Source of the DNA: a virus
Taxonomy: Duplodnaviria; Caudoviricetes
DNA length: 64,000 nucleotides
IMG/VR virus record: IMGVR_UViG_3300021400_001148
Span: 64,001 to 128,000 of that record
Reading direction: 5' to 3' (one strand)
Both the position numbers and the translations under genes were made by a program. This document shows positions 47,132-63,580 of the stretch, in pieces. Every line of letters begins with the position of its first letter. The first letter of the stretch is position 1. A model generated the notes under the pieces. The model was not told the DNA's origin. It saw only the letters and a program-made list of their open reading frames with translations, and ran no database searches.

Positions 47132-48082
47132 ATGACACAGGAAGAAAAGCAAATATTGTTGATTGACCTTTGCGCAAGGTTGCCTTATGGGGTTAAAGTA
47201 AAAATAACTAATGAGGGTGTTCTATCGGTTGATAGTGAAAAAGGAACTCTTGATGGTAAAGAAATCATGAGTGATGACTGCTTCACTATTAAATGTGATA
47301 AGGATAGTTGGATATTGTCATATGATGAATTCAAACCTTATCTCCGTCCAATGTCAAGTATGACTGAGGAAGAGAAGTGGGAATCTATTGATATTAAGAA
47401 AGGGGAATGCAACGGCTGTGTTCTTACTGGAAAAGGTGACCCAAATACAGAATTTATGCTAGTTGATTTCTATAATAAGCATCACCTTGACTATCGCGGA
47501 TTGATTCCTATGGGAATTGCTCTTGAAGCCCCGGGGAAATGTATGAAAATATATAAAAACAAACAGAATATGACAAGAGAAGAAAATATCACCGTTCCTC
47601 GCTGGTTTCTCGAAACAGTGGAAGATACGCTTCGGATTCAGAACAATATCAACCTTGATAAAAGTACCGGGGAAACCTGTCAGGACCGAAATGTAAAAGA
47701 ATCTCTCAACGGATTGCGAAAACTTTTGAGAGGCGAAGAACTAACCGGGGGAGAAAGATTGGAAAAGTTACAGCCCTCCCTTCCCTCCAATCTGGACGAG
47801 GCAGCAGAAGAAACAGCCAAAAAATATTATTGTTCGTGTTTGGAAAAGCACAATGAAACCGGCATTTGCGATGGGTGCGAAAATGTAAAACTATCTTTCA
47901 AGGCCGGTGCCGAGTGGATGGCCGGACAGGGATATGTCGATACTCACGCAGTGATAAATGAATATAGAGATTGGGGTGACGGGTTTGCAAATCTGGAACT
48001 TGCCATTGCCACCAATGATGATTTCTTTGAAGATTGGCAAGAACCGAATGAAATAATCATCCAAATCCGAAAGAAACAGTAA
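47132..48082 (+). CDS. family C gene joined to a family G gene (ATG at 47570) by a 1-nt deletion near 47535
   Basis: The paralog ending (G)MY..* survives out of frame (stop at 47556); the second half has QPSLPSNLDEAA..FKAGAEWMAGQG. Confidence 0.7.
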   Translation: MTQEEKQILLIDLCARLPYGVKVKITNEGVLSVDSEKGTLDGKEIMSDDCFTIKCDKDSWILSYDEFKPYLRPMSSMTEEEKWESIDIKKGECNGCVLTGKGDPNTEFMLVDFYNKHHLDYRGLIPMGIALEAPGKCMKIYKNKQNMTREENITVPRWFLETVEDTLRIQNNINLDKSTGETCQDRNVKESLNGLRKLLRGEELTGGERLEKLQPSLPSNLDEAAEETAKKYYCSCLEKHNETGICDGCENVKLSFKAGAEWMAGQGYVDTHAVINEYRDWGDGFANLELAIATNDDFFEDWQEPNEIIIQIRKKQ

Positions 48083-48084
48083 CC

Positions 48085-48411
48085 ATGAGAACAAAACCCA
48101 TACATCCCGATGAAGAACTTTTTACAAAGTCCGGCTTAAGTTATGAGCGTATCCCCATCCCAACAGCCGTAACAAAAATACTTAGGCGGAAGGTGGGAGA
48201 TAAGGTATTAATTTGCCACTATGCGAGAAATACGCACGACACGGCTGTATTGAACTATGTGAGTTTCAATGAGGGATTTTTACACCAATATGCAGGCTAT
48301 AGTTTCGGTATATCCCCGGGGCAAACACTAAAAGAAAAACTCATTATAGTGGCAGAGAATATTGCTGAGACTTGGCCGGAATATGCAGTAAGAAAACGAA
48401 AGAAACAGTAA
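48085..48411 (+). CDS. hypothetical protein
   Basis: Ends in KKQ* like both neighbours. Confidence 0.6.
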   Translation: MRTKPIHPDEELFTKSGLSYERIPIPTAVTKILRRKVGDKVLICHYARNTHDTAVLNYVSFNEGFLHQYAGYSFGISPGQTLKEKLIIVAENIAETWPEYAVRKRKKQ

Positions 48412-49974: not shown

Positions 49975-50532
49975 TTTCCGTATTCTCCGTAACACCATTT
50001 TAACGGAATAATAAAGATGCGGACTTTTTCCGTGAATAGAATAGTATGAAGTCGGTGTTTCCCCGGGGTACGGATGTGGTTGACAGTCAGGATGTTATGC
50101 GGAAGCGCTTTGGGGGCCCCGGGGAAAAATAGGGGAAGAAAGTGGAAGAAAATGGAAAAAAGTGGAAAAATTGGCCTTCCGAACTGCGGCTCGTGCGGCC
50201 GCGACCCCCTGGAAACAGTAAAAAATTATTAAGTTACGAAAAAAAATCGACATATCCCCGGGGCCCGGCGCAATTCAATCAGCGGCGAAGTCCTTTCCGC
50301 ATTCAGCACATTTTATCGGAATATATTCTGCACAATATTTTATTTTTGTATATTTGTATAACCCCGGGGGTCCGGCAGTTTCCTTTTCCCCTGACCGGTA
50401 TTATTCCCCGGGGTTTTTATTATAATGGAATACGTTCGGCTACATAAGGCTGCAATTGTCAAAAGGTCGAAAAATCATCTATAGGAAATTCCGGAAAAGA
50501 GGGTATTTTATTGTCAAAAGGTCGAAATTCAG

Positions 50533-50778
50533 ATGAAGTCCAAGTTCAAGATAGGAATGGAATCCCCGGGGGTTGTGATTGACACCACCTCTTGGGGATA
50601 TTCCCCCGGGGCGGGTGTGGATGTATTTTACCCACAGTGGATGAGGGCGGTTCTTTCTCCCCGGGGCGTGAACGACATCGGTGCCATATGGTTGTTCGGG
50701 GAAAGTATGAAAATGACCGGCCACGGGGATGTGTTCATCTTCAGGAACCAGAACCGGCTTAAGTACTACGGGAAATGA
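50533..50778 (+). CDS. hypothetical protein
   Basis: 81-aa ATG ORF. Confidence 0.45.
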   Translation: MKSKFKIGMESPGVVIDTTSWGYSPGAGVDVFYPQWMRAVLSPRGVNDIGAIWLFGESMKMTGHGDVFIFRNQNRLKYYGK

Positions 50779-50963
50779 GAAAGGTTGACAGTCCCTCTGG
50801 TTTTAGGAGGATTTTCGAAGTCGGGGTGAAATATATTTTCGACCCGTATTTCTGGTACTATTCCCGGTACGAGCCTCCGCAGGATGAAAATCCCAATTCT
50901 TTCAGGGACTGGAACAGATTTTCAGAGCGGTGGTAATATTTATAGAGGATAAAACTTTTATAT

Positions 50964-51149
50964 ATGCCAGAAAGGGTTTTCAGTGGACTTATGATTGCAT
51001 TCGGGCTTGGGGGTGTGTTCTATTCCCTCGCGCATCTTATGCTTGTCAATCCCATCGCCGGGGTTGTCGGTTTCCTTGTGAGTATGATTGTGGCGATACT
51101 GGGTCTGGACGACAGTGCGAAGAACGACGAACGCAACGGGAAAAAATAA
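50964..51149 (+). CDS. small two-TM membrane protein
   Basis: Two hydrophobic helices and a charged tail. Confidence 0.55.
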   Translation: MPERVFSGLMIAFGLGGVFYSLAHLMLVNPIAGVVGFLVSMIVAILGLDDSAKNDERNGKK

Positions 51150-51472
51150 CAGATTGAAACTTTTTTTGAATTTTTGCTTACGATTTTTTATTTTTTCGTA
51201 AGTGAATTTTTTGAAAACTGTAAGCAAAAAGGGGCTAACCTGAGAAAGGCTGGTCCCTTAATATTTTTTCGGTGTGTCGTGCATCCGTCTGAAGACATTG
51301 AGGCATTGGATGCTCCAGTTTATGAAATATACCTCCCGGGGGTTGGCGTTCATATATCCGCGGGAGACAAGTGCTCTTCTGGTGTTGAACATCTTGCTCC
51401 TGAGACTGATGGTATCTATCCCCGGGGAATCCGGTGTGCGGACACAGTGCCGGTAGAAAAATTCAATGTTTC

Positions 51473-51715
51473 TCATATTCTGTTTGGTTGGTCCCTGTGT
51501 ATCTTGTTTTCCGGGCGGTGCATTTTCCTGAACTCGTTGAGGTATTGGAGCGAGTAGTTTACGAAATAATGTGCCCCGGGGTCTTTGTTTTTGTCCCACC
51601 ACAGCATCTGGGAAGGAAAGACGAAAAGGCGGCCGTACCAATATTCTATGCCTATGCTTGCAGGGGAATCCATTGAATGTCCGGCGTGCTTGTTTGCAAA
51701 TTCAATCCATCTCAT
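51473..51715 (-). CDS. hypothetical protein
   Basis: One of a run of small Trp-rich coupled ORFs (51258-51911). Confidence 0.5.
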   Translation of the reverse strand: MRWIEFANKHAGHSMDSPASIGIEYWYGRLFVFPSQMLWWDKNKDPGAHYFVNYSLQYLNEFRKMHRPENKIHRDQPNRI

Positions 51716-51911
51716 AATAATAGTCTTCCGTGTGCTGGTCTACCCATTCCGGGTTTCTTGTCCGTGGCCAGTTGGGGCCGAGTCCAAGTGCGATGTCCCC
51801 GGGGTACTGGATAAAAGAAAAGCGCTCCCAGAAGAAAATATCATCGGGAGTGCTGTCGAAGAGGCTGTCCTCGGGGAAATATCTTGCCGGCGATTCTGGG
51901 CCCCTTTCCAT
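51702..51911 (-). CDS. hypothetical protein
   Basis: Coupled small ORF. Confidence 0.5.
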   Translation of the reverse strand: MERGPESPARYFPEDSLFDSTPDDIFFWERFSFIQYPGDIALGLGPNWPRTRNPEWVDQHTEDYYYEMD

Positions 51912-51913
51912 TG

Positions 51914-52420
51914 TTACTTCCTGTGCAGGGCTTCTACTGCCATTATTGAATAGGCCGCAAGGTCCCTCAGCGTGTCTTCAATGCTTTCGTCCTTGACCTT
52001 CTGTTCAACCCCGGGGGATGTAAGGGTCTTCAGCCTGCGGTACTTGTCGCCGATACGCATAACATATGAATTGATGCCGAACTCCTTGTAGGATTCATAT
52101 GCAGCGTCACCGTAATCGTTGTTCTTCCGTTCGTGGAGGTCCATAATCTCACGGGCGATGGTGTCAAATGTGAGGATGCGATTCGTCTGGAAATCTGCTT
52201 TGGCTGCGGCGACTCCCTCATCGGAAATTCTTTCCTTGTCAGGGCCACAGCTCTCCCAAGGGCGGTAGGTGGCGTATTCCTCCCACCATTTTTTTCCTTC
52301 AAGCGTTGGAGATTCCTTCACTTCCGCCTCTGGTGCCACATAGGGCTTCCCTGATTTGTCTTCCTCTACCGGCACATTCCAGTATCTCGGTGTGTTTGCA
52401 TTAAGTTTATTCTTTACCAT
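51914..52420 (-). CDS. DUF1599 / nucleotide-modification-associated domain protein
   Basis: KNNDYGDA...RI.DK..RL..L......DESIEDTL.DLA.Y. Confidence 0.8.
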   Translation of the reverse strand: MVKNKLNANTPRYWNVPVEEDKSGKPYVAPEAEVKESPTLEGKKWWEEYATYRPWESCGPDKERISDEGVAAAKADFQTNRILTFDTIAREIMDLHERKNNDYGDAAYESYKEFGINSYVMRIGDKYRRLKTLTSPGVEQKVKDESIEDTLRDLAAYSIMAVEALHRK

Positions 52421-52520
52421 ACTTTGTTTGTATTTTTTGTGGACCCCGGGGACGGTGACACTCCGCCTTACGCCCGGTAAAAGCCGGGGCTTCATAAACC
52501 AAAAGCCTCCCGGGGTTGTT

Positions 52521-53366
52521 TTATTCCAGCACTGTTATCGCACTGGGAGGGATGTTGTCGAAAGTGTAGACCGCCTGATACTGTCTGGGGTCATAGTAGA
52601 ACCTTGCCCCGGGGACTGCGGCCACATCTATTTCAAGCTGTACGAAAGTATCCCCCTCCGGATTCTTCTCCTTAAAATAAAATTCGGGTTGTATGGCGTT
52701 TTTCTTGGTGAAGAAATATATCCTCGATGTGTCGGCCTTCACATTCTCCGGTTTGAGCAGGGTCTCGTTTTCTCCCTTGGTGTGCCCGCCGAAGCCTTTC
52801 CACTGGCTCAGTTTGGGGTTGAGGCCGATGCGGAGGATTTTCTTCAGATGGCGGGTCTTGCAGAAATGGTAGAGTTTTCCCAGTTTCCGTACCTCGTCGG
52901 TAAGGTCCTCGGTGAACTTCTTCTCGAGCGAGACTGTCAGGCATCTCCCCCCGGGGATTCCCGAAAAACTTGAAACCCGTTCACTGACATATGCCCAGCC
53001 GAAATCCTGTGCACGGCTGATGGCTTTCCACTTGATGGTCTCCTCCATTTCCTGATTGGTTATGTGGATGATGATATGATTCTTATCCCCGGTAATCAGG
53101 ATGAACCCGTTGTACTCCCCCGGGGTGTATTCACTGGGGGTGTATTCATTGATGGGGCTCAGGTTGAGGAGACTGCACAGGTGCTTTACCAGCATTTCCG
53201 CGGGGTAGGTCCTCAACACCGCCTCGTCCAGCGCAAGAAGCGGGGCGTATTCCATCTTCGCCATATCCTCATCCAGTGACACCGGCCTGAGCCTTCCTCC
53301 GGTTATCATCTCCCCGGGGAAACCTCTGACCTCGCCGGTCTTTTCATCTATTCTTGCTTTTTCCAT
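52521..53366 (-). CDS. protein with C-terminal KptA/Tpt1-like ADP-ribosyltransferase fold
   Basis: LYH.......IL..GL.P, RIYF, LEID and YTFDNIPP.AI motifs; start placed after the TATATTTG box at 53374-53381. Confidence 0.6.
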   Translation of the reverse strand: MEKARIDEKTGEVRGFPGEMITGGRLRPVSLDEDMAKMEYAPLLALDEAVLRTYPAEMLVKHLCSLLNLSPINEYTPSEYTPGEYNGFILITGDKNHIIIHITNQEMEETIKWKAISRAQDFGWAYVSERVSSFSGIPGGRCLTVSLEKKFTEDLTDEVRKLGKLYHFCKTRHLKKILRIGLNPKLSQWKGFGGHTKGENETLLKPENVKADTSRIYFFTKKNAIQPEFYFKEKNPEGDTFVQLEIDVAAVPGARFYYDPRQYQAVYTFDNIPPSAITVLE

Positions 53367-53521
53367 CTCTATGCAAATATACAAAAAATATTTGGAATTG
53401 TGAATAAAAGACCCCGGGGGAAAGATGCCTTTATTAAAAAAAAGCGCACGATGGAGAACATACTTCACGGTTAAAATTAAATTCGCCCCCTGCTTGTGCC
53501 TACTACTTTCTTTCGACATTA

Positions 53522-53564
53522 TAAAGATACGAAAAATATTACTGACTTTACCGGCCTCGGCGCA
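53522..53564 (-). promoter_or_regulatory. bipartite promoter (variant box TATCTTTA)
   Basis: TGCGCC 35 nt upstream of the box. Confidence 0.6.
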
Positions 53565-53674
53565 ATAAAGCCCCCGGGGGGAAATAATACGCCCACACTT
53601 CGGCGCAGGTTGGAGTCTAGTTTCTGCGGTTGGGGTCACTGCTCCGCAAGTATGGCTACTTCCTTTCACCAGTA

Positions 53675-53717
53675 CAAAGATAGCAAAAAAATCTGAGAAC
53701 CCCGGGGACTGGGCGCA
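53675..53717 (-). promoter_or_regulatory. bipartite promoter
   Basis: TGCGCC and TATCTTTG, 35-nt offset. Confidence 0.7.
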
Positions 53718-53745
53718 AGGTGCGCTGCTGAAAAATGCGCTGCTG

Positions 53746-53828
53746 AAAAAAAAAAGAAGCCCGACATCTCACGACGGCGGACTTCCGAATAAATGTAAAT
53801 AATGATACTAGTAAATAATGATAAAAGT
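53746..53828 (-). ncRNA. candidate ~85-nt small RNA
   Basis: Lies between the 53834-53876 promoter and the terminator GAAGTCCG...CGGGCTTC-T9; contains TATCATTATTTAC twice. Confidence 0.5.
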
Positions 53829-53833
53829 CAGTA

Positions 53834-53876
53834 CAAATATACAAAAAAATTTTCAGACTTTGCCGTGTACGGCGCA
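53834..53876 (-). promoter_or_regulatory. bipartite promoter
   Basis: TGCGCC and TATATTTG, 35-nt offset. Confidence 0.75.
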
Positions 53877-53881
53877 GCCCG

Positions 53882-54703
53882 CTACATCTCGTCAAGCGGT
53901 TTCTGGGGAACACCGTCCAGAACCGGAAGGTCCCTGTCCTGACGGGCCTTGACAATCGCACGCCCGAAGTTACGGTAATAGGATTTCAGTACCTCGTCGT
54001 AGATTTTCTTGAACTGCCCCGGGGATACTTTGTATTTCTTCAACTCCAGTTCGGTACGCTTGTCGGAAAGGAAATCCTCCTTGTTGTCGTTGAGGTATTT
54101 GATGTTCCGGTATACCACTGTACTTTTAAGAGCCTTCTCTTCTTCTTCCGGGGATTTAGCCTGAAGAACAGCGGCGTAGATATTGTTGATATTGGCGTCG
54201 GTCTCCGCTTTCTCGTAGTAGTAAAAGACAAAGGCCACGGCTCGCGGAATCAAGCTCATGCTGGCGAGACTGGCAGTAGCTGTCCGGTATATATTCTCGT
54301 CACGGACCAAGTTCGGCCTGATTCCGGAAGCGTGCTGGAATGCGTGGTGGAGTTCGTGCTGAAGGTTCAGGGAACTGATGAGTTTCTTCTCACTGACGAT
54401 ATACCCGGAGTTGAGGTAGATGCTCTTCGTGGCTTGGTTGTAACTGGAGTTCATGCCACCCCAGGAACTCGCACGCTGGTAGTCGGCCATAGTCTGGAAC
54501 GGAACGACCCTGTATACCACGGGGATTTCAATTTCTTTCCCCGGGGTTTTTATAGTCGCCCACTCATATCCAGTCAGGGTGTCACTTATCGGAGGATTGC
54601 TCTTGACTTTCTCGGATATCGCCTTCCAGATTCTTCCGGCCTCCGAGGCGACACTGTCATTCACCCCGAGTTCCTCGTTGATGTACTGTTTGATTTCTTC
54701 CAT
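53882..54703 (-). CDS. HExxH zinc-peptidase-like protein
   Basis: LQHELHHAFQ with a downstream E (AETDAN). Confidence 0.65.
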   Translation of the reverse strand: MEEIKQYINEELGVNDSVASEAGRIWKAISEKVKSNPPISDTLTGYEWATIKTPGKEIEIPVVYRVVPFQTMADYQRASSWGGMNSSYNQATKSIYLNSGYIVSEKKLISSLNLQHELHHAFQHASGIRPNLVRDENIYRTATASLASMSLIPRAVAFVFYYYEKAETDANINNIYAAVLQAKSPEEEEKALKSTVVYRNIKYLNDNKEDFLSDKRTELELKKYKVSPGQFKKIYDEVLKSYYRNFGRAIVKARQDRDLPVLDGVPQKPLDEM

Positions 54704-54706
54704 GTA

Positions 54707-55201
54707 TCAGTTATTCGGGTTTGTCCAGCCCCGGGGGATGTCCGTGTAGGCATCGCCCCTGAGCTGCTGCTTCCGCCAGTCGGAGGTATAGTGGTAGACC
54801 TGCCCCCGGGCCGCCTTCAATGTTTTCTCATATGCCCGTCTGCACTCTTCCTTCGCCGCATTGACAAACTCCGGGGCCTTGTCGTTGAGGAACGCGTCGG
54901 AGTCAATCATATTGTAGGCCTTGCAGTAAAAAGCCGCAAAGTATCCGTCGCTCGGTGCCTTGGCGTATGCCTCAACAACTTTCTCCCACTCGTCGTTTAT
55001 GCTCTTCACATACCGTTTCTTGCCCTCGTCACCGGTCTTGTGTTCTGTCACGGTAGCACTGTAAACGACGGAACCTATGCATATCACGAACTCCCTGTAG
55101 GTTTCAGCATACACATAGTTGAAGTTGAGGTGCTCGTGCTGTGACTTCCCCGGGGTGAGGAAGAGCAGGAGAGAAATTATGGAGAGGATTGTTCTTTTCA
55201 T
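54707..55201 (-). CDS. exported hypothetical protein
   Basis: Signal peptide MKRTILSIISLLLFLTPG. Confidence 0.6.
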   Translation of the reverse strand: MKRTILSIISLLLFLTPGKSQHEHLNFNYVYAETYREFVICIGSVVYSATVTEHKTGDEGKKRYVKSINDEWEKVVEAYAKAPSDGYFAAFYCKAYNMIDSDAFLNDKAPEFVNAAKEECRRAYEKTLKAARGQVYHYTSDWRKQQLRGDAYTDIPRGWTNPNN

Positions 55202-55249
55202 GCGTTGAGGTAAAATGTGGGACTCAAACGAGTACCAATAGCGCCGGTA

Positions 55250-55558
55250 TCAGAGGTCCTCCGGCTTCTCGAGGGTTTTCATCTCCGCAAGGATGCGGGT
55301 ACGGTCGGCGGCGGTGAGGGTGGGCCGTGCGACAGGTCTTGTGTGTGGGCCGGCGGGGTTGGGGTCGTGCGGTGGACGGGTGTCTTCTTTTTTCCCCGGG
55401 GTGTTCCCTTCATCGTGAGTCACCTCCCGGTGTATGGTAAGCACTTCGTCCTCTATCACATTGACCTCGTCCTTTACATAGTCCAGTTCTGACTTAAGCA
55501 GATAGTATAATACTATTGCAAGGGCAATTATAATTGCCAGAGAATACACGGTGTTCAT
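55250..55558 (-). CDS. membrane-anchored hypothetical protein
   Basis: Start moved to MNTVYSLAIIIALAIVLYY. Confidence 0.55.
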   Translation of the reverse strand: MNTVYSLAIIIALAIVLYYLLKSELDYVKDEVNVIEDEVLTIHREVTHDEGNTPGKKEDTRPPHDPNPAGPHTRPVARPTLTAADRTRILAEMKTLEKPEDL

Positions 55559-55559
55559 A

Positions 55560-55868
55560 CTACTCTTCCGCGGGCCTCCACATCCCTCCTGAATAACGCT
55601 GGGTGTTGAGGATACCCAGAAACTCCTCCGGGGTGGCATATGAAACTCTCTCCCGGAGCACCCCGTAACCGTTGAAGGAAGTCCTCTCCTTGACAAAGCA
55701 GGCCCCGGGGTATCCGTCCCCTCCCCTGTAATAAGTAATGCAGTCATATCCCAGACTCTTCCTCTGGTTGTCTGAAAGGTAGAGGGTTGTAGCGTGGGAC
55801 ATCTCATATTCCCCGCAGCCGCTCTTGGCAATGATATTATCAATAATGGTGATACAAGAATTAGTCAT
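55560..55868 (-). CDS. hypothetical protein
   Basis: 102-aa packed ORF. Confidence 0.5.
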   Translation of the reverse strand: MTNSCITIIDNIIAKSGCGEYEMSHATTLYLSDNQRKSLGYDCITYYRGGDGYPGACFVKERTSFNGYGVLRERVSYATPEEFLGILNTQRYSGGMWRPAEE

Positions 55869-55870
55869 GT

Positions 55871-56575
55871 TTATTCTTCTAAGAGTTTTTTTAATTCAGC
55901 AGTCTTCTTTGGTAGCCCTAATTTTTCAATATGCTTTCTGATACTGGTTTCACTAACCCCTAATTCCCTAGATACAGCACTACGGTTGTAATCGTTCTCT
56001 TTTAATATTTTTATAAATTCTTCGTCACTTAAATTTATTTTGGCTCTTTGCTTTGATGCGCAAGAAAGACAATATATTGCTGCCTTTGTTTTGACCTCTC
56101 TCCCACAGATGGGACAATACTTTTTTTCTTTTTTACTTACCCCACAATAATTTTCTGTTTGGCTGTGGCAGTTGGGACATAAGATTTGCAAGTTTTCTAA
56201 TCTATTATCTTTATGGTTACCGTTTTTATGGTGTAACTGACACACCAGTGGTTTTCCTTGCCATTCACTAACACCGCATATCTCGCATTTATTCTCCTTA
56301 AAACCGTCCTTAATTAATCTGCTTTTTAATTTCGAAGAAGTAATGAATGTGCCATCTATAGTCAAGTATTCCTCGGTTTTTTTCTGTAGTTTTGGAATTT
56401 CTTTGGGGTGGAAAGTGAAATGCTGATTTGTGATATTGTACAATTCCATTTTCCTTTTAAGTGTACTAACATTATTTCCTTGGCATGGAATTCCTAATTT
56501 CCGCAAAGTTTCTTGATAAGAAAAACTGGCATTCACTGCCGCTCTTATGTCGCTTTCATTCCAATTGTATTTCAT
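55871..56575 (-). CDS. free-standing HNH endonuclease with Zn ribbon and C-terminal HTH
   Basis: CEICG..LHHKNGNHKDNRLENLQILCPNCH, CPICG..CLSC and SAVSRELGVSETSIRK. Confidence 0.9.
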   Translation of the reverse strand: MKYNWNESDIRAAVNASFSYQETLRKLGIPCQGNNVSTLKRKMELYNITNQHFTFHPKEIPKLQKKTEEYLTIDGTFITSSKLKSRLIKDGFKENKCEICGVSEWQGKPLVCQLHHKNGNHKDNRLENLQILCPNCHSQTENYCGVSKKEKKYCPICGREVKTKAAIYCLSCASKQRAKINLSDEEFIKILKENDYNRSAVSRELGVSETSIRKHIEKLGLPKKTAELKKLLEE

Positions 56576-56593
56576 ATTTTAACACTATTTAAG

Positions 56594-56665
56594 TTGCCCC
56601 ACCCCGAGTTGAACAGGGATTACTGGTGCCAAAAACCAGTGTAATTACCGTTATACGATAGGGCA
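56594..56665 (-). tRNA. tRNA-Gln(UUG), CCA not encoded
   Basis: Acceptor TGCCCTA/TGGGGCA; anticodon arm CTGGT-TTTTGGC-ACCAG; T-loop GTTCAA. Confidence 0.85.
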
Positions 56666-56727
56666 GTCAGTTATAAATAGTGTTAGTACGAATTTTTTTT
56701 ACTTTATTTACAAACATTTTAGTGTTG

Positions 56728-57264
56728 TGGTCCCTGCAGGACTTGAACCTGCGACCCACTGATTCGTACCACTATAGCTTTCGCTACCAAAATATTGGGT
56801 CTCCCACCCAAGAATCGCTTGTTACAGCTTATTTTGTTTGTGGTCTGGACTCTATCTTAACCATATTGAAATCTTGCAAGATATAAAGTATGACTTAATG
56901 CTGGGTCTCACAGCCATCGGCCACATAGGTTCTCTTTCCTCATACTCTATAATTTCAACTTAGGTTCCTCCTGTATAGTCTCTACACACTGTCTATAAAC
57001 TTAACCGTCTATTATCATTTAAGAAATTCGAACAACTTACAATTTCCATAGATAATATGGAGAACTTAATTTTTTACGGTTAAAGTTTAATAACATTGGC
57101 TCGGTATTAGCATGAGCGAGGTTCATCCATATGATGATTTTCTTAACCTTCTTTTAGCTTTAACCGAATTAGGGAGGTTCTACATCCGGAGTTTCCCCCG
57201 GTGCATACAATTTCTTTTTTCAAAGAACTAATCAGTTGCTCTGACCAACTGAGCTTAAGGGACC
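56728..57264 (-). tRNA. intron-split tRNA; anticodon uncertain, possibly degenerate
   Basis: 5' half GGTCCCT..AGCTCAGTTGGTCAGAGCAACTGA (57264-57232); 3' half AATCAGTGGGTCGCAGGTTCAAGTCCTGCAGGGACCA (56764-56728). Confidence 0.8.
56765..57228 (-). ncRNA. group I intron (IC3-like), no ORF
   Basis: Core elements P AATTCGG, Q AATACCGAGCC, R GTAGAGACTATA, S AAGATAGAGTCC; ACCAC/GTGGT pairing; terminal G. 5' boundary uncertain by a few nt. Confidence 0.85.
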
Positions 57265-57271
57265 ATCTATG

Positions 57272-57727
57272 TTACTCGCCGTCAGCGATGCGGTCGATGT
57301 ATCTTTCATTGTGTTCCGCCACACCGTTCGCTTTCCTGTCGAACTCCCTTATCTGGGAATAGAACTCGCCCAATACATCCTGAAGGTCGGCCAGCCTCTT
57401 CCTCAGGGACTTCACAGCATTCAGATAGGCATTCCTCTCGGCCTTGGCGCGGGAAATCCTCTTGCCCTTTTCCACATCGAAGGTATCCCCCGGGGCTACA
57501 GTAGCGTATCCTCTGGCAGTTCCAGTGACATCCCCACCCGTCATACGCTTTCCGTCAATCCATCCGTAAAAGTAAAGCCCCTCCATGATGTTGGTTATGG
57601 GACGAGGCAGTATCGCCTGATAATCGATGACAGTCACAACCAGATTCTTCTTCTCGTCGACATAAGTCTTGGGAGCGTAGGTCCGCAGCTTGATGCTGTT
57701 GCGGTTAAATTTGGTAAACTTCTTCAT
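57272..57727 (-). CDS. conserved phage hypothetical protein
   Basis: P.D.FDVEKGKRISRAKAE motif. Confidence 0.65.
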   Translation of the reverse strand: MKKFTKFNRNSIKLRTYAPKTYVDEKKNLVVTVIDYQAILPRPITNIMEGLYFYGWIDGKRMTGGDVTGTARGYATVAPGDTFDVEKGKRISRAKAERNAYLNAVKSLRKRLADLQDVLGEFYSQIREFDRKANGVAEHNERYIDRIADGE

Positions 57728-57754
57728 ATTTTTTCTCTTTTAAATTTCTTTCTG

Positions 57755-57797
57755 CAAATATACAAATAAATTCCGGAATAATGCCCAGAGTGGCGCA
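57755..57797 (-). promoter_or_regulatory. bipartite promoter
   Basis: TGCGCC and TATATTTG, 35-nt offset. Confidence 0.75.
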
Positions 57798-57900
57798 ATA
57801 TCGTACTCAAACGAGTCCTAAACCGCTTATATAGAGATGGTTATCATAGTTTTTGCACAATTTTCAAAGGGTATTATAACAGTGCAAATTACTATATTGT

Positions 57901-58146
57901 CTAGCAAACCCTTAGGATGGTAATGTTGAAAGGATTCGGCGATGTGCTCTTGACTGTCATGCTCTCCCCCGGGGAAAGAGCCTCAACCCTTTCCTGTGAA
58001 ACCCCGAGGACGAAGAAAGTCAGTTCATCCTCCCCCGGGGACACCGAGAGACTGGTCACCATAACTCCAGACGGGCCGTTCGGGGTCACGACAATATACT
58101 CCTTCCTCCCCTCTCCGTGGGACTGGAAATAAACATTCTCAATCAT
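57901..58146 (-). CDS. hypothetical protein
   Basis: 81-aa ORF. Confidence 0.55.
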   Translation of the reverse strand: MIENVYFQSHGEGRKEYIVVTPNGPSGVMVTSLSVSPGEDELTFFVLGVSQERVEALSPGESMTVKSTSPNPFNITILRVC

Positions 58147-58448
58147 AGTTCCTAGATTTTACGGTAACGGAAATCCACCCCGGGGTTTCGCTCCTCGAGT
58201 TGCTTCTTGATGGCCTGTGCGTCAGACCTCCAGTCACAGCAAGCAACCATTGTCCACTTGCCTGCATCGTCATTGTATCTGCTTACGATGTACATATTAA
58301 TACCTGTGCAAAATGGTTTCTTCGAAAGTTGCGTTGAGGCCCTGCCCCACCAGTCTGTAGTAGTAGTCCCTCGCGGTGGCATAGTCCTCAAATGTGGTGG
58401 GCTCATACCCGTCAGCGGTGCAGTCCACGAGATATCCGGTTACTGTCT

Positions 58449-58709
58449 TCATACCCACCTCCCCTTTGAATTGCGTCCGTATACCCTTTCCAGCATATAG
58501 ACATCGTCAAAGAGGTTCTCCGGCTTGTCCACTCCGTCACCTCGCAGGTCCGAGACTTTCTTTAGACGCCTCTTCAAAATACAGATGCCGGTGTTAACCA
58601 GATTTTTGTCAATCAGCCAGTCGGCATATACCTTTGCACCCTTCAGAGTGCTTTTGATGGCGTAGACGACACTGCCCGCGCCCTCAACCACATAAATGAA
58701 ATTGCCCAT
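58449..58709 (-). CDS. hypothetical protein
   Basis: AGGAGG upstream of the ATG. Confidence 0.6.
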   Translation of the reverse strand: MGNFIYVVEGAGSVVYAIKSTLKGAKVYADWLIDKNLVNTGICILKRRLKKVSDLRGDGVDKPENLFDDVYMLERVYGRNSKGRWV

Positions 58710-58801
58710 ATAGTTTCCTCCTTCTTTTAAGCCTCCGGGGGAAAATGGTACTCAGATGAGTCCGAGCCCCGGGGTATATGTAACATTTTTGTTTCTTACC
58801 G

Positions 58802-59035
58802 CTAAATATCCTCAACAATCTCCGCCCCGGCCATGCCATACCTGAGAAACTTTCCGTCAGACAGTATTCCGTCCCCGGGGAATTTCCCGTACTTCAAAGA
58901 CACATGTTTCCACAGTCGCCGGAGAAATACCTTTGCTTCCCCGATGGTGCGCAAGTGAACCCTGTCAGCGGTGCAGTATTCACGGAGGCGGGCTCTCTCC
59001 CACTCCGGCCCGCATAACTCTATCCTTGCCTTCAT
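58802..59035 (-). CDS. hypothetical protein
   Basis: Coupled ORF. Confidence 0.55.
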   Translation of the reverse strand: MKARIELCGPEWERARLREYCTADRVHLRTIGEAKVFLRRLWKHVSLKYGKFPGDGILSDGKFLRYGMAGAEIVEDI

Positions 59036-59298
59036 GCCACAATCCTCCCCCAGAGTTTTCTTACATCACCGGCACTCATCCTGCTCCAGTCCACGCCCCA
59101 CATCACATCAGAACCATACCAAGGTCTGCACTGCAAACCCAGGAGGTCACCGGCCCATACCATAGAATAGGCTTGAAACTTTGTGTGCTTGCGGTCTCTG
59201 AGCTGTTTCCCGAAATCCGCGACAACAGTCTCCACACCAGGCTGACAGCGAAGATGGTTCTCTATCTCCGCCACCATAATGTTTTTTGTAATCCTCAT
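59032..59298 (-). CDS. hypothetical protein
   Basis: Coupled ORF. Confidence 0.55.
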   Translation of the reverse strand: MRITKNIMVAEIENHLRCQPGVETVVADFGKQLRDRKHTKFQAYSMVWAGDLLGLQCRPWYGSDVMWGVDWSRMSAGDVRKLWGRIVA

Positions 59299-59299
59299 A

Positions 59300-59614
59300 T
59301 TATGAATACATTAAAGCCAGTACCTCGTCGGCAACCGTACCGAGGTCATAATAGATTTTCGTCCCGTCCATGCAGGTCAGCCACACCACCTCGCTCACAT
59401 CATCCCGAACCTGCCTCGCGATGTCCGCGGTCTTCTTGTCGAAGGCATAAAACGAGGTCGCTCCCCCGTGCCCGTCATTTGACACCCGTCCGATGGGCGT
59501 CCCGTCACAAACAAGTGTGGCAATGTAATCGCAGGTCTCTTCCGAGTGGATGCCGAACTCAACATCCCTCAAGGCGAACATATGCCCGCCAATGTACTTG
59601 AATCTCTTTTTCAT
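59300..59614 (-). CDS. conserved phage hypothetical protein
   Basis: SEET....A....DG..IG..SNDGHGG motif. Confidence 0.65.
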   Translation of the reverse strand: MKKRFKYIGGHMFALRDVEFGIHSEETCDYIATLVCDGTPIGRVSNDGHGGATSFYAFDKKTADIARQVRDDVSEVVWLTCMDGTKIYYDLGTVADEVLALMYS

Positions 59615-59633
59615 ATCTTGTTCTTCTTTGTTA

Positions 59634-59676
59634 CAAAGGTACAAAAAACTCTCCGGACTATGGCGGATTTGGCGCA
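59634..59676 (-). promoter_or_regulatory. bipartite promoter
   Basis: TGCGCC and TACCTTTG, 35-nt offset. Confidence 0.75.
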
Positions 59677-59920
59677 GCGTATGCGGATGTTACAAAAGTG
59701 GTGTTTACAAATGTAACATTCGAAAATGTAACATAAGTAATTGTTACAGAGGAAGTTATAAAAAAATATATTAAGTTACGAAAAAATTTTGAAACATCCC
59801 CCGGGGTAGGCGCAAGGAGGAAATGTCGGCACAAACAACTAATATAACAAAAAAATTTGGGACCCCCGGGGAGTTAGGCGCAAAAGTGGCAGCCCCGCTT
59901 GCGCCTAAAAAGAAAACGGG

Positions 59921-60115
59921 TCAGACCCGTTTCTTCTTCCGGCCGCGTGTTTTTTTCTCACTGCCTATTTCAGTTATTTTCTTTTTCTTCTCGTCCCATT
60001 TGTAGTGAGGGGTTTTGAAATAATCCAAACTTTTTTTATACCAATTTGGCAGGTTTGGCATCCGCCCGCACCCGACACGCAACATCGCATCGTTTATTTC
60101 CTTTTCAGTAAACAT
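59921..60115 (-). CDS. basic hypothetical protein
   Basis: K/R-rich tail. Confidence 0.5.
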   Translation of the reverse strand: MFTEKEINDAMLRVGCGRMPNLPNWYKKSLDYFKTPHYKWDEKKKKITEIGSEKKTRGRKKKRV

Positions 60116-60336
60116 TATTTTATCCTCCTTATTTTGCTTTCAGCCACCCTCAGAATTCCGTTGATACGGGAATCGTCCTCAACGAAGAATCCGATGTAAT
60201 CTTCATTTTTGTGTTCCTCTGCGTAGGCAACAGCATCGTCACCGGTTTTCTTTATATACAGCCAATAGTTTTCGGCCGGCAGGTTGTGATATCGCCTTGC
60301 AATATCAACCGCAGTGCGGACATTTGCTGTTATCAT
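60115..60336 (-). CDS. hypothetical protein
   Basis: Coupled ORF. Confidence 0.55.
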   Translation of the reverse strand: MITANVRTAVDIARRYHNLPAENYWLYIKKTGDDAVAYAEEHKNEDYIGFFVEDDSRINGILRVAESKIRRIK

Positions 60337-60896
60337 TTGACGTATTCAATTGATTCGGGAATATCAAGGGCGAAGTCCTCCGCATCCCAATACCTACCAT
60401 CTGACATGCCGTTGAGGAATTCAAGTTGCGCCTGCTCATAAATTTCCTTGTCTTCTTCGGGCCCAACAAACTTGAAGTGCTCGTCAAACTCCTCACCCCA
60501 TTCTGCAATTTCGCTCATATAGGGGTCGATAACCCTCTCGCATTCGAAAGAGAAATAGTTCTCATCATTCGCGGGGCAGAAGAAAGGATACTGGTCTTCC
60601 ATAGTCTCCCGTGCATGTTCCCAACATACAACATCGCCACTGTTTACGGTCCTGAACTCCGGGGCGTACTGGTAGACATAAACATTCTCGACAGACCACT
60701 CTTTCTCCTTGCTGAGCAGTTCCTCGTTGCAGGCCATACCGAAAAGGTCTTTCAATTCAGAGTCATTTGCCGGAACGGCTGAAAGAACGATATTGTCATC
60801 GGCCTGATTTCCGTCAATCCATTTTACCCTGCCGATAACCCCGTGGCGATAATCGTATACAAGTTCACCCTTTGTTAATTCATGATGTCTTTTCAT
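60333..60896 (-). CDS. acidic hypothetical protein
   Basis: Start after the promoter; YPFFCP..DEN.F.FE motif. Confidence 0.65.
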   Translation of the reverse strand: MKRHHELTKGELVYDYRHGVIGRVKWIDGNQADDNIVLSAVPANDSELKDLFGMACNEELLSKEKEWSVENVYVYQYAPEFRTVNSGDVVCWEHARETMEDQYPFFCPANDENYFSFECERVIDPYMSEIAEWGEEFDEHFKFVGPEEDKEIYEQAQLEFLNGMSDGRYWDAEDFALDIPESIEYVK

Positions 60897-60916
60897 AACT
60901 TTTTCCTTTTGTATTA

Positions 60917-61014
60917 CAAAGATAAGGAAAACATTTGATACTTTATTTGTTTTGGCGCAGCGAGGGCAGCCACCCTTGCGCCTAAAAGAAAATGGTACTC
61001 GTCTGAGTACCATT
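60917..61014 (-). promoter_or_regulatory. repeated junction: hairpin, GGCGCA..TGCGCC inverted repeat, promoter
   Basis: Related copies at 59876, 61773, 62490 and 63516. Confidence 0.75.
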
Positions 61015-63479: not shown

Positions 63480-63580
63480 CAAATATAGTGAATGTATTTC
63501 AGAGATTGTCCGGCCAGGCGCAAAGTGGGCAGCCGACCTTGCGCCTAAAAGAAATGCCCCGGGAAAAGGAGCCCCGGGGC
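63480..63580 (-). promoter_or_regulatory. repeated junction with promoter
   Basis: GCCCCGGG/CCCGGGGC hairpin, inverted repeat, TATATTTG at 35-nt offset. Confidence 0.75.

Follow-up and report, generated by a model that had tools for sequence, protein, structure and literature searches.

A gradient of an 8-bp palindrome anchored on a conserved non-coding edge in a rumen jumbo phage and a relative

Results

Genes and sequence features around the edge

We analyzed a window of 64,000 nucleotides (positions 64,001 to 128,000 of IMG/VR record IMGVR_UViG_3300021400_001148). The window lies in a 355-kb rumen jumbo phage, the likely host of which is Cryptobacteroides. Coordinates below refer to the window unless the genome is named. 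A zone at 50061-59871 holds 34 exact copies of the palindrome CCCCGGGG (hereafter, the word) and is densest at its left edge, with eight copies in the first kb.

The zone begins at a non-coding edge (49975-50530) where transcription converges. This edge is homologous to that of L354, a second phage with 40-70% protein identity, in which a promoter-like element with a site, purine-rich repeats and the outermost site are found. The purine-rich GGAA-type repeats lie at 50131-50170 (+ strand), and a 17-nt core is identical in L354. The last leftward promoter-like element (50220-50275, - strand) consists of a TGCGCC box plus a variant -7 box with the word in its spacer (site 50256), and L354 has the same arrangement. 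Further, two copies of a 17-18-bp direct repeat lie at 50455-50527 (+ strand). This repeat is also present twice next to the convergence of G001, a word-free relative (E=0.002).

Among the genes of the zone, a small gene at 50533-50778 (+ strand) contains three sites, one of which is shared with its L354 ortholog. A DUF1599 (nucleotide-modification-associated) gene at 51914-52495 (- strand) contains two sites, one shared with L354. A 281-aa gene at 52521-53366 (- strand), for which similarity to ADP-ribosyltransferases is a lead only, contains four sites at positions where its paralogs lack Pro-Gly. One of these sites is lost and regained 15 bp away in other strains. A 273-aa gene with a HExxH motif (53882-54703, - strand) contains two sites. 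An early promoter at 53680-53717 (- strand) has the word in its spacer (site 53700). Two tandem promoter-like elements at 59762-59882 (- strand) each have the word in the spacer (sites 59799 and 59864), and the second is conserved with its site in L354. An array of dyad-headed cassettes starts here. Four copies of a second dyad, GTACTC-N4-GAGTAC, lie at 55220, 57803, 58748 and 60995 (span 55220-61010). All nine genomic copies of this dyad lie in the early block, which ties the zone and the cassette array into one unit.

A site-free AT-rich insert (55871-57264, - strand) comprises an HNH gene (55871-56575), tRNA-Gln (56593-56665) and an intron-split tRNA (56727-57264). The absence of sites from the HNH gene (34.5% GC) alone has P=0.09, whereas that from the 1.78-kb HNH/tRNA/intron gap has P=0.002. 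L354 has no HNH gene at this position, and thus the suggestion of the initial annotation that this gene may be a later arrival is supported.

The word is enriched at the DNA level

The enrichment described in the initial annotation was confirmed. Besides the 34 copies, we found two in the preceding 50 kb (47529 and 48314), both within the 10 kb to the left of the zone, one after it (63572), and 72 in the genome, against 3.1 expected under an order-3 Markov model. Dinucleotide shuffles of the zone gave a mean of 0.38 copies (maximum, 4 in 1000), and local Markov models of orders 1-3 expected 0.4-1.6. Of the 34 copies, 21 are coding, in all three frames (2/9/10), and 13 are intergenic. Synonymous-codon shuffling of the zone genes gave 1.8 +/- 1.3 coding copies (maximum, 7 in 2000) against 21 observed. 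The word is also approximately 20-fold over-represented in genes outside the zone (26 vs 1.2). Further, 19 of 21 Pro-Gly pairs spell the word, and Pro-Gly itself is in 3.3-fold excess (21 vs 6.4 expected), compared with five Gly-Pro. Proteins were altered for the word: paralogs lack Pro-Gly at those places.

We next asked whether composition or assembly could account for this result. The zone has approximately 49% GC against 41% for the genome; however, the enrichment survives the local nulls, is reproduced in independent assemblies and strains, and recurs in another species. An independent assembly is 100% identical over 20.8 kb across the edge, a Logan contig spans it, and other strains keep the same order. 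Thus, the region is not a chimera, the possibility that had been named beforehand as one that would overturn the observation, and an artefact is refuted.

The initial annotation also noted many 7/8 variants. These are largely shifted overlaps with exact sites; without the overlaps there are 15, approximately 3-5-fold over background, against approximately 30-fold for the exact word. Of 37 CCCGGG hexamers in the zone, 34 carry both outer bases, as do 29 of 38 in L354 and 19 of 22 in L356, whose array promoters also carry the word. A 6-bp enzyme would not demand the outer bases. We detected no flank preference and no clear helical phasing. The reversed word GGGGCCCC is not enriched, in contrast to what an explanation by A-form DNA would require, and as to G-quadruplexes, the sites average approximately 290 bp apart.

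These results bear on the restriction decoy and the SmaI/Cfr9I-type link suggested in the initial annotation, neither of which is supported. The word contains CCCGGG, CCSGG and CCGG, and 14 of 61 host-family genomes have no copy, which hints at restriction pressure. However, these genomes are not enriched (0-63 sites each, at most 25 per Mb, against approximately 3400 per Mb in the zone), and piling cut sites into early DNA runs against the avoidance of other palindromes there. A profile search for the XcyI family (PF09571) returned no nuclease. A restriction decoy of the SmaI/XmaI/Cfr9I type, or the site of a host protein, is therefore very unlikely. The initial annotation further linked the word to the methyltransferase at 2209, and this link is unsupported. 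The gene belongs to a large generic family (482 clusters at E<1e-30), has a 45%-identical paralog elsewhere in the genome and shows no tie to the word; its closest homologs lie on contigs too short to bear on this link.

The density is a gradient anchored on a conserved edge

The density was not that of a flat zone. It was 3.4 per kb in the zone, 0.41 per kb over the next 27 kb, 0.11 per kb in the core and 0.035 per kb in the 114 kb to the left. The thin tail starts at 63572-63579 and comprises 11 sites over 27 kb, ending in a mini-cluster at genome 149.5-150.5 kb, outside the window. Two outlying sites (47529-48321) lie just beyond the edge, and L354 also has two within 1.6 kb beyond its edge. 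Density fell with distance from the edge in both phages (Spearman rho -0.81 here and -0.79 in L354), although most positions differ: of the coding sites compared, two are shared, five are found only here and four only in L354. Between strains, 31-32 of 34 sites are kept, and both observed gains lie within 35 bp of a loss. However, site bases are not significantly more conserved between strains than other G/C bases (p=0.08 and 0.38).

The word is absent from 43 more distant relatives except for single copies. Distant relatives share the block and its edges but lack the word or any coding-level substitute, so the word is not needed for this architecture. Apparent clusters of other words in the distant relatives G001-G003 were collagen-like or LRR protein repeats. 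TCCGGA in G002 (15 of 24 in its early block) is mostly intergenic, with 3 vs 1.3 in genes, and is not a true analogue. A scan of viral contigs for a triple-site pattern gave 43 hits, which were tandem repeats or high-GC chance matches, none of them related. Searches for related loci or phages using zone genes returned nothing.

Rapid positional turnover and the genome-wide excess of approximately 20-fold raise the possibility of molecular drive without function, in which a methylation-linked repair or gene-conversion ratchet, as proposed for HIP1 (PMC5861425), writes the word wherever heteroduplex forms, most of all at a repeat boundary that recombines every cycle. The phage has five DNA methyltransferase genes of unassigned specificity, none with an ortholog in G001-G003, including an MvaI/BcnI-type one, and strain-level conservation is not significant. 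On the other hand, this reading must also explain amino-acid changes, gains next to losses, and an 8-bp rather than a 4-6-bp word. None of the four losses seen is a C-to-T change, and no enzyme tracks the word. The methylation-linked mutational origin suggested in the initial annotation is not excluded for the low genome-wide background but does not by itself explain a 30-fold one-sided gradient. We consider drive as the whole explanation unlikely.

Sites in promoter spacers raise the possibility of early-gene shut-off, in which a phage repressor or nucleoid protein would bind the word to silence the early block, with spacer sites as operators and coding sites as roadblocks. Four of seven zone promoters carry the word between the TGCGCC and -7 boxes, against 0 of 66 elsewhere; six array promoters in L356 carry it at variable offsets; and in phage CBB the iterated word AGTACT abuts -35 boxes. 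However, none of the array promoters of this phage carries the word in the spacer, 21 of 34 sites are coding, and density follows distance from the edge rather than promoter number. Shut-off is therefore also unlikely.

The edge closes an early block resembling a long terminal repeat

The edge at approximately 50.0 kb closes a 36.5-kb block of early genes (genome 114.0-150.5 kb). The block consists of small, spaced, co-oriented genes with their own promoters, read away from one boundary, like the annotated 22,456-bp repeat of CBB and the early-gene 39-kb repeat of PA5oct (PMC7318152). A homologous element sits at the upstream boundary in G002 and G003, and here is interleaved with three more exact sites. 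Other 4-bp palindromes are most avoided in this block (0.66-0.68 vs 0.74-0.83). None of the 20 contig ends examined in ten relatives showed the edge motif.

In sample ERZ12302819, the contig holding the block had coverage 13.26 and a core contig 10.65. This ratio of 1.245, from one pair of contigs that differ in GC (42.8 vs 39.9%), implies 1.69x for 36.5 kb or 1.95x for 26.6 kb. It matches a 2x repeat of the 26.6-kb array alone (expected 1.259) better than one of the whole block (1.355), and hence the zone may lie just outside the repeat. A low-coverage sample gave only 3.06 vs 2.66 (1.15).

To identify a protein that reads the word, we scanned 140 lineage-specific proteins and the small zone genes against Pfam and PHROG and found no DNA-binding family. 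A search for T4 gp16 gave no match to a small terminase. A candidate reader at genome 238971, shared with G009, was rejected because it is also present at 68% in G010, which has no site in 51 kb, and because its nearest named family is a 3D domain.

Discussion

The interpretation in the initial annotation, a regional mark such as a protein-binding platform for first-entering or packaged DNA, was partly supported: it fits the evidence and is sharpened to a gradient anchored at a conserved edge of a terminal-repeat-like early block. Our analysis establishes that the word is a DNA-level signal with strict 8-bp specificity, and that its density falls with distance from a conserved edge in two species while most site positions differ. 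What follows, including any binding, methylation and the position of the genome ends, is inferred from sequence and contig coverage.

We tentatively propose (probability approximately 0.42) that the word is a self-address read by a sequence-specific, two-fold symmetric protein, most likely a phage-encoded homodimer, and that the gradient is a loading platform for it beside a genome-end cut. In this view, the edge at ~50.0 kb is the downstream boundary of a long direct terminal repeat of about 36.5 kb (approximately 0.65), so that one copy of the zone would form the last 10 kb of the linear chromosome. Given that, the reader would be the small terminase or an accessory end-processing protein (approximately 0.6). 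It would bind many sites cooperatively, so that cutting and packaging start at this edge on concatemers and run through the zone first. The mini-cluster at the other boundary would serve the second cut, and the sparse sites elsewhere would help to tell phage DNA from host DNA, in which the word is rare. However, the terminase is T4-like, a family that classically packages headfuls without fixed ends.

Alternatively, a dimeric protein, carried in the head or made first, may coat the sites and block exonucleases that chew in from the physical end, or may anchor the DNA as in the T5 injection stop. A one-sided decay from a sharp edge is what a nuclease moving in from an end would select, and the block avoids other palindromes, as DNA exposed early would. 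T5-like phages leave open how their first-step DNA escapes degradation (PMC10644984). In contrast, Chi-type words are asymmetric and enriched in the host, whereas here only the full palindrome is enriched and the host group is not. Further, by the geometry of CBB, the left end lies upstream of the cassette array, at the boundary that has only 3-4 sites; if that end enters first, which is an assumption, the dense arm is not the first DNA exposed. End protection or entry control thus appears unlikely, although it is the strongest of the alternatives.

Comparison with other systems shows what differs here. HIP1 of cyanobacteria (GCGATCGC) is likewise a strongly over-represented 8-bp palindrome found in all reading frames and between genes, without an established reader (PMC5861425), and the over-representation of the present word falls within the 15-300-fold of HIP1-type palindromes. 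However, HIP1 is chromosome-wide and periodic and has methylated cores, whereas the present word is in a phage, is not enriched in the likely host, and forms a 30-fold one-sided gradient anchored on one boundary. In P1, methylated GATC (Dam) is needed at the pac site for packaging (PMC12707154), and T7/T3 right-end pac signals and SPP1 pac boxes are also repeated short sites beside the place where packaging is thought to begin. Those signals are compact, mostly under 300 bp, whereas here the sites run for 10 kb through genes, with a tail and a genome-wide background. The jumbo phages CBB (22,456 bp; KU574722), PA5oct (39,080 bp; PMC7318152) and XacN1 (65,875 bp; PMC5852040) have long direct terminal repeats and share with the present phage a block of small, spaced, co-oriented early genes, and T4-like head and terminase genes. 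Similar words (AGTACT, CCCCCGGGGG) occur in other jumbo phages. In CBB, AGTACT reaches about 7 per kb in the repeat but falls only to about 4.5 per kb in the first 40 kb, with no sharp edge. Literature searches found no report of the present word or of AGTACT enrichment in jumbo phages. The T5 injection-stop signal is a cis-acting, repeat-rich region at the inner edge of a terminal repeat (10.1101/866236), and the zone is of similar length (about 10 kb) to the T5 first-step-transfer DNA (PMC10644984); however, the T5 signal is a 1.2-kb non-coding region, and T5 is a siphovirus with two-step injection. Chi, matS and parS are also short words whose density carries positional information, but Chi is asymmetric and host-enriched, and matS and parS are longer and fewer. 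Neither rewrites proteins over a 10-kb gradient.

A bolder possibility, which remains doubtful, is that a lineage of jumbo phages uses a graded self-address: a phage protein would read the local density of a short palindrome, written through 10 kb of genes, to find the boundary of its long terminal repeat, start packaging there and tell its own DNA from that of the host. Other jumbo-phage lineages may do the same with other words. We found no account of how jumbo phages with repeats of tens of kilobases choose and cut their ends, and HIP1-type palindromes had no established function in the review consulted (PMC5861425). Here, the same kind of word forms a gradient that points at one conserved boundary in two species, which ties it to a place and gives sharp predictions of where the end lies, which protein binds and which bases matter. 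If right, this reading also offers a sequence-only way to locate termini in uncultured jumbo phages, and shows selection on a DNA signal strong enough to change proteins.

The 8-mer is enriched and strictly specified

To examine whether the density of the palindromic 8-mer reported in the initial annotation was genuine, we counted exact copies and compared them with several null models. The window lies in a complete 354,809-bp circular contig with a 100-bp overlap, a jumbo phage with a T4-like terminase and major capsid protein that was found in rumen assemblies. Exactly 34 copies were present at 50061-59871 (the zone), with two in the 50 kb before and one after, and the genome held 72. A dinucleotide shuffle of the zone gave 0.38 copies (maximum 4 in 1000), and a synonymous-codon shuffle of the genes of the zone gave 1.8 +/- 1.3, whereas 21 were observed. 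The sites fell in all three reading frames (2/9/10) and between genes (13). The initial annotation had named two conditions that would refute the pattern, loss of the excess under codon- and GC-aware nulls and a chimeric join, and neither was fulfilled: the excess survived such nulls, and an independent assembly was identical over 20.8 kb across the left edge of the zone. Note that a second assembly, a scaffold of 362,907 bp identical over the 20.8 kb compared, is 8.1 kb longer than this genome. Thus, the reported enrichment is real.

We next asked what kind of signal the word represents. Only the exact word counted. One-base variants that did not overlap an exact site numbered 15, about 3-5x background, compared with about 30x for the word. 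Of 37 CCCGGG hexamers, 34 carried both outer bases, and there was no flank consensus or clear phasing. These results point, by inference, to a two-fold symmetric reader with nuclease-like strictness, and against a 6-bp SmaI-type enzyme. Further, proteins were changed for the word: Pro-Gly occurred 21 times against 6.4 expected, and Gly-Pro 5 times. Of the 21 Pro-Gly pairs, 19 spelled the word. The 281-aa gene at 52521-53366 (-) contains four sites, and its paralogs, at genome positions 57880, 339219 and 350109, lack Pro-Gly there. The 281-aa protein has ADP-ribosyltransferase/DarT/Tpt1-like features (Atlas score 0.86), which we regard as a lead only. Between strains, 31-32 of the 34 sites were kept. 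Both gains detected were within 35 bp of a loss, although one of these is in a 15-bp tandem duplication, and base-level conservation was not significant.

The density of the 8-mer forms a gradient anchored at a conserved edge

To the right of window position 50.0 kb, the density was 3.4 per kb for 10 kb, 0.41 for the next 27 kb and 0.11 in the core, and it was 0.035 in the 114 kb to the left. Genes outside the zone still held 26 copies against 1.2 expected. A second phage (L354), whose proteins are 40-70% identical, spans the same region and has 29 copies in 20.9 kb, rising to 4-5 per kb at the same edge. Density fell with distance from the edge in both phages, with rho of -0.81 here and -0.79 in L354. 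In aligned genes, 2 sites were shared, 5 were present only here and 4 only in L354. The DNA of the edge itself is homologous, comprising a last promoter-like element with a site in its spacer, purine-rich repeats and then an outermost site. A third relative has 19 copies in 18.6 kb of its cassette array, and fragments of closer relatives carry the background excess. In contrast, of 44 distinct related virus records searched, only the closest (G009) had more than one copy, and 40 had none. In those examined, no other word is written through the genes of the block that the edge closes; TCCGGA occurred 13 times in 6 kb of the early array of the distant relative G002 (199-205 kb), out of 24 in its genome, but mostly between genes. 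What is conserved is therefore the word and its profile, within one sub-lineage, and not the individual sites.

The edge closes a block of early genes

The edge is the point at which transcription converges, and it closes a block of small, spaced, leftward genes with their own promoters that runs from genome position 114.0 to 150.5 kb. Four of seven promoters in the zone carry the word, which would suit a role in shutting off early genes, but we consider this reading unlikely. Five TGTAAC/GTTACA repeats were located at window 59689-59780, just upstream of the last promoter of the zone, and form the densest such cluster in the genome. A tRNA gene at window 56727-57264 (-) is split by an insert of about 460 bp, probably an intron, and its ortholog in L354 has a 123-bp insert at the same place; this gene was missed by default tRNA and Rfam scans, and the anticodon calls disagreed.

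A second dyad, GTACTC-N4-GAGTAC, was confined to this block here (9 of 9; window 55220, 57803, 58748 and 60995, and five more to genome position 143165) and in the related genome G001 (7 of 7), which ties the zone and the array together. It also occurs in the arrays of L354 and of L356, a relative bearing the word, and is probably the operator of a conserved regulator. At the far boundary, upstream of the cassette array, a duplicated G-run/A-tract element (genome 150180-150460) has homologs in G002 (209223) and in another distant relative, G003 (37580), and is interleaved here with three more exact sites. This element is a candidate left genome end or origin.

The genome as a whole lacks GATC completely (0 versus about 2000 expected on both strands), and ACGT, AGCT, CTAG and CCWGG are strongly avoided. 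CCGG is over-used about 1.4x in genes everywhere except the cassette array (0.64). Other 4-bp palindromes are avoided most in the early block.

We then compared the block with the long terminal repeats of other jumbo phages. The record of phage CBB annotates a 22,456-bp terminal repeat, and this phage has the same build, with spaced, co-oriented small genes read away from the left end. Within this repeat (1-22456), AGTACT was dense, at about 7 per kb, often directly before the -35 box of early promoters, and without a sharp edge in the 40 kb examined. The 39-kb repeat of PA5oct holds its early genes (PMC7318152). In one sample, the contig containing the block had a coverage of 13.26 and a core contig 10.65, which implies 1.69x over 36.5 kb or 1.95x over the 26.6-kb array alone; the 10-kb zone alone cannot account for this difference. 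A long terminal repeat, which may or may not include the zone, is therefore likely, although it is inferred. The smooth rise to the 50.0-kb edge in L354 favors that edge as the boundary. Protection of the DNA end or an injection stop at such a boundary is possible, but we consider it unlikely.

Search for a reader of the 8-mer

To identify a possible reader, we examined the likely host and the proteins of the phage. The only evidence for the host was an IS1595 gene with 90-91% identical relatives in Cryptobacteroides and other Bacteroidales. Sixty-one genomes of that family held 0-63 sites, at most 25 per Mb, which is about chance and over 100-fold below the zone, so the 8-mer is not a host chromosome word like Chi or HIP1. 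We consider a host protein or a restriction decoy very unlikely. No DNA-binding family, XcyI-type nuclease or T4 gp16 was found in our searches for a reader.

The initial annotation had suggested the possible involvement of the orphan methyltransferase gene at window 2209. This is one of five methyltransferases; it has a 45% identical paralog and 482 homologous clusters, and nothing links it to the word. Three orphan DNA methyltransferases (one C5, one MvaI/BcnI-type and one paralog of the gene at 2209) are clustered at genome 156464-159603, without orthologs in G001-G003. The MvaI/BcnI-type enzyme may merely make CCSGG-containing words safe to carry, which is an inference. A methylation or conversion ratchet was considered as improbable as early-gene shut-off. 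Thus, the interpretation in the initial annotation was supported in part: a protein-binding platform remains within the reading that we favor, whereas the link to the methyltransferase at 2209 is not supported.

Interpretation

The 8-mer shares two features with HIP1 but lacks its genome-wide spread; it therefore works like an iterated palindrome but is not classed as HIP1. Further, the gradient is far longer than known pac sites and runs through genes. A literature search found no paper on this word or on such gradients.

We tentatively favor the view that the gradient is a loading platform for a homodimer of a phage end-processing protein or small terminase (probability about 0.42). The word, its strictness, the gradient, its anchor and its range among lineages were demonstrated from the sequences, whereas the terminal repeat, the reader and a role in packaging are inferred. 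In the geometry of CBB, the edge would be the right-hand terminus. T7-type phages start packaging at the right end from signals just inside it. P1 gates its pac cut with clustered methylated GATC (PMC12707154). In this view, many sites near the cut, few at the second boundary and a thin background elsewhere would fit cooperative loading plus self-recognition of the phage DNA.
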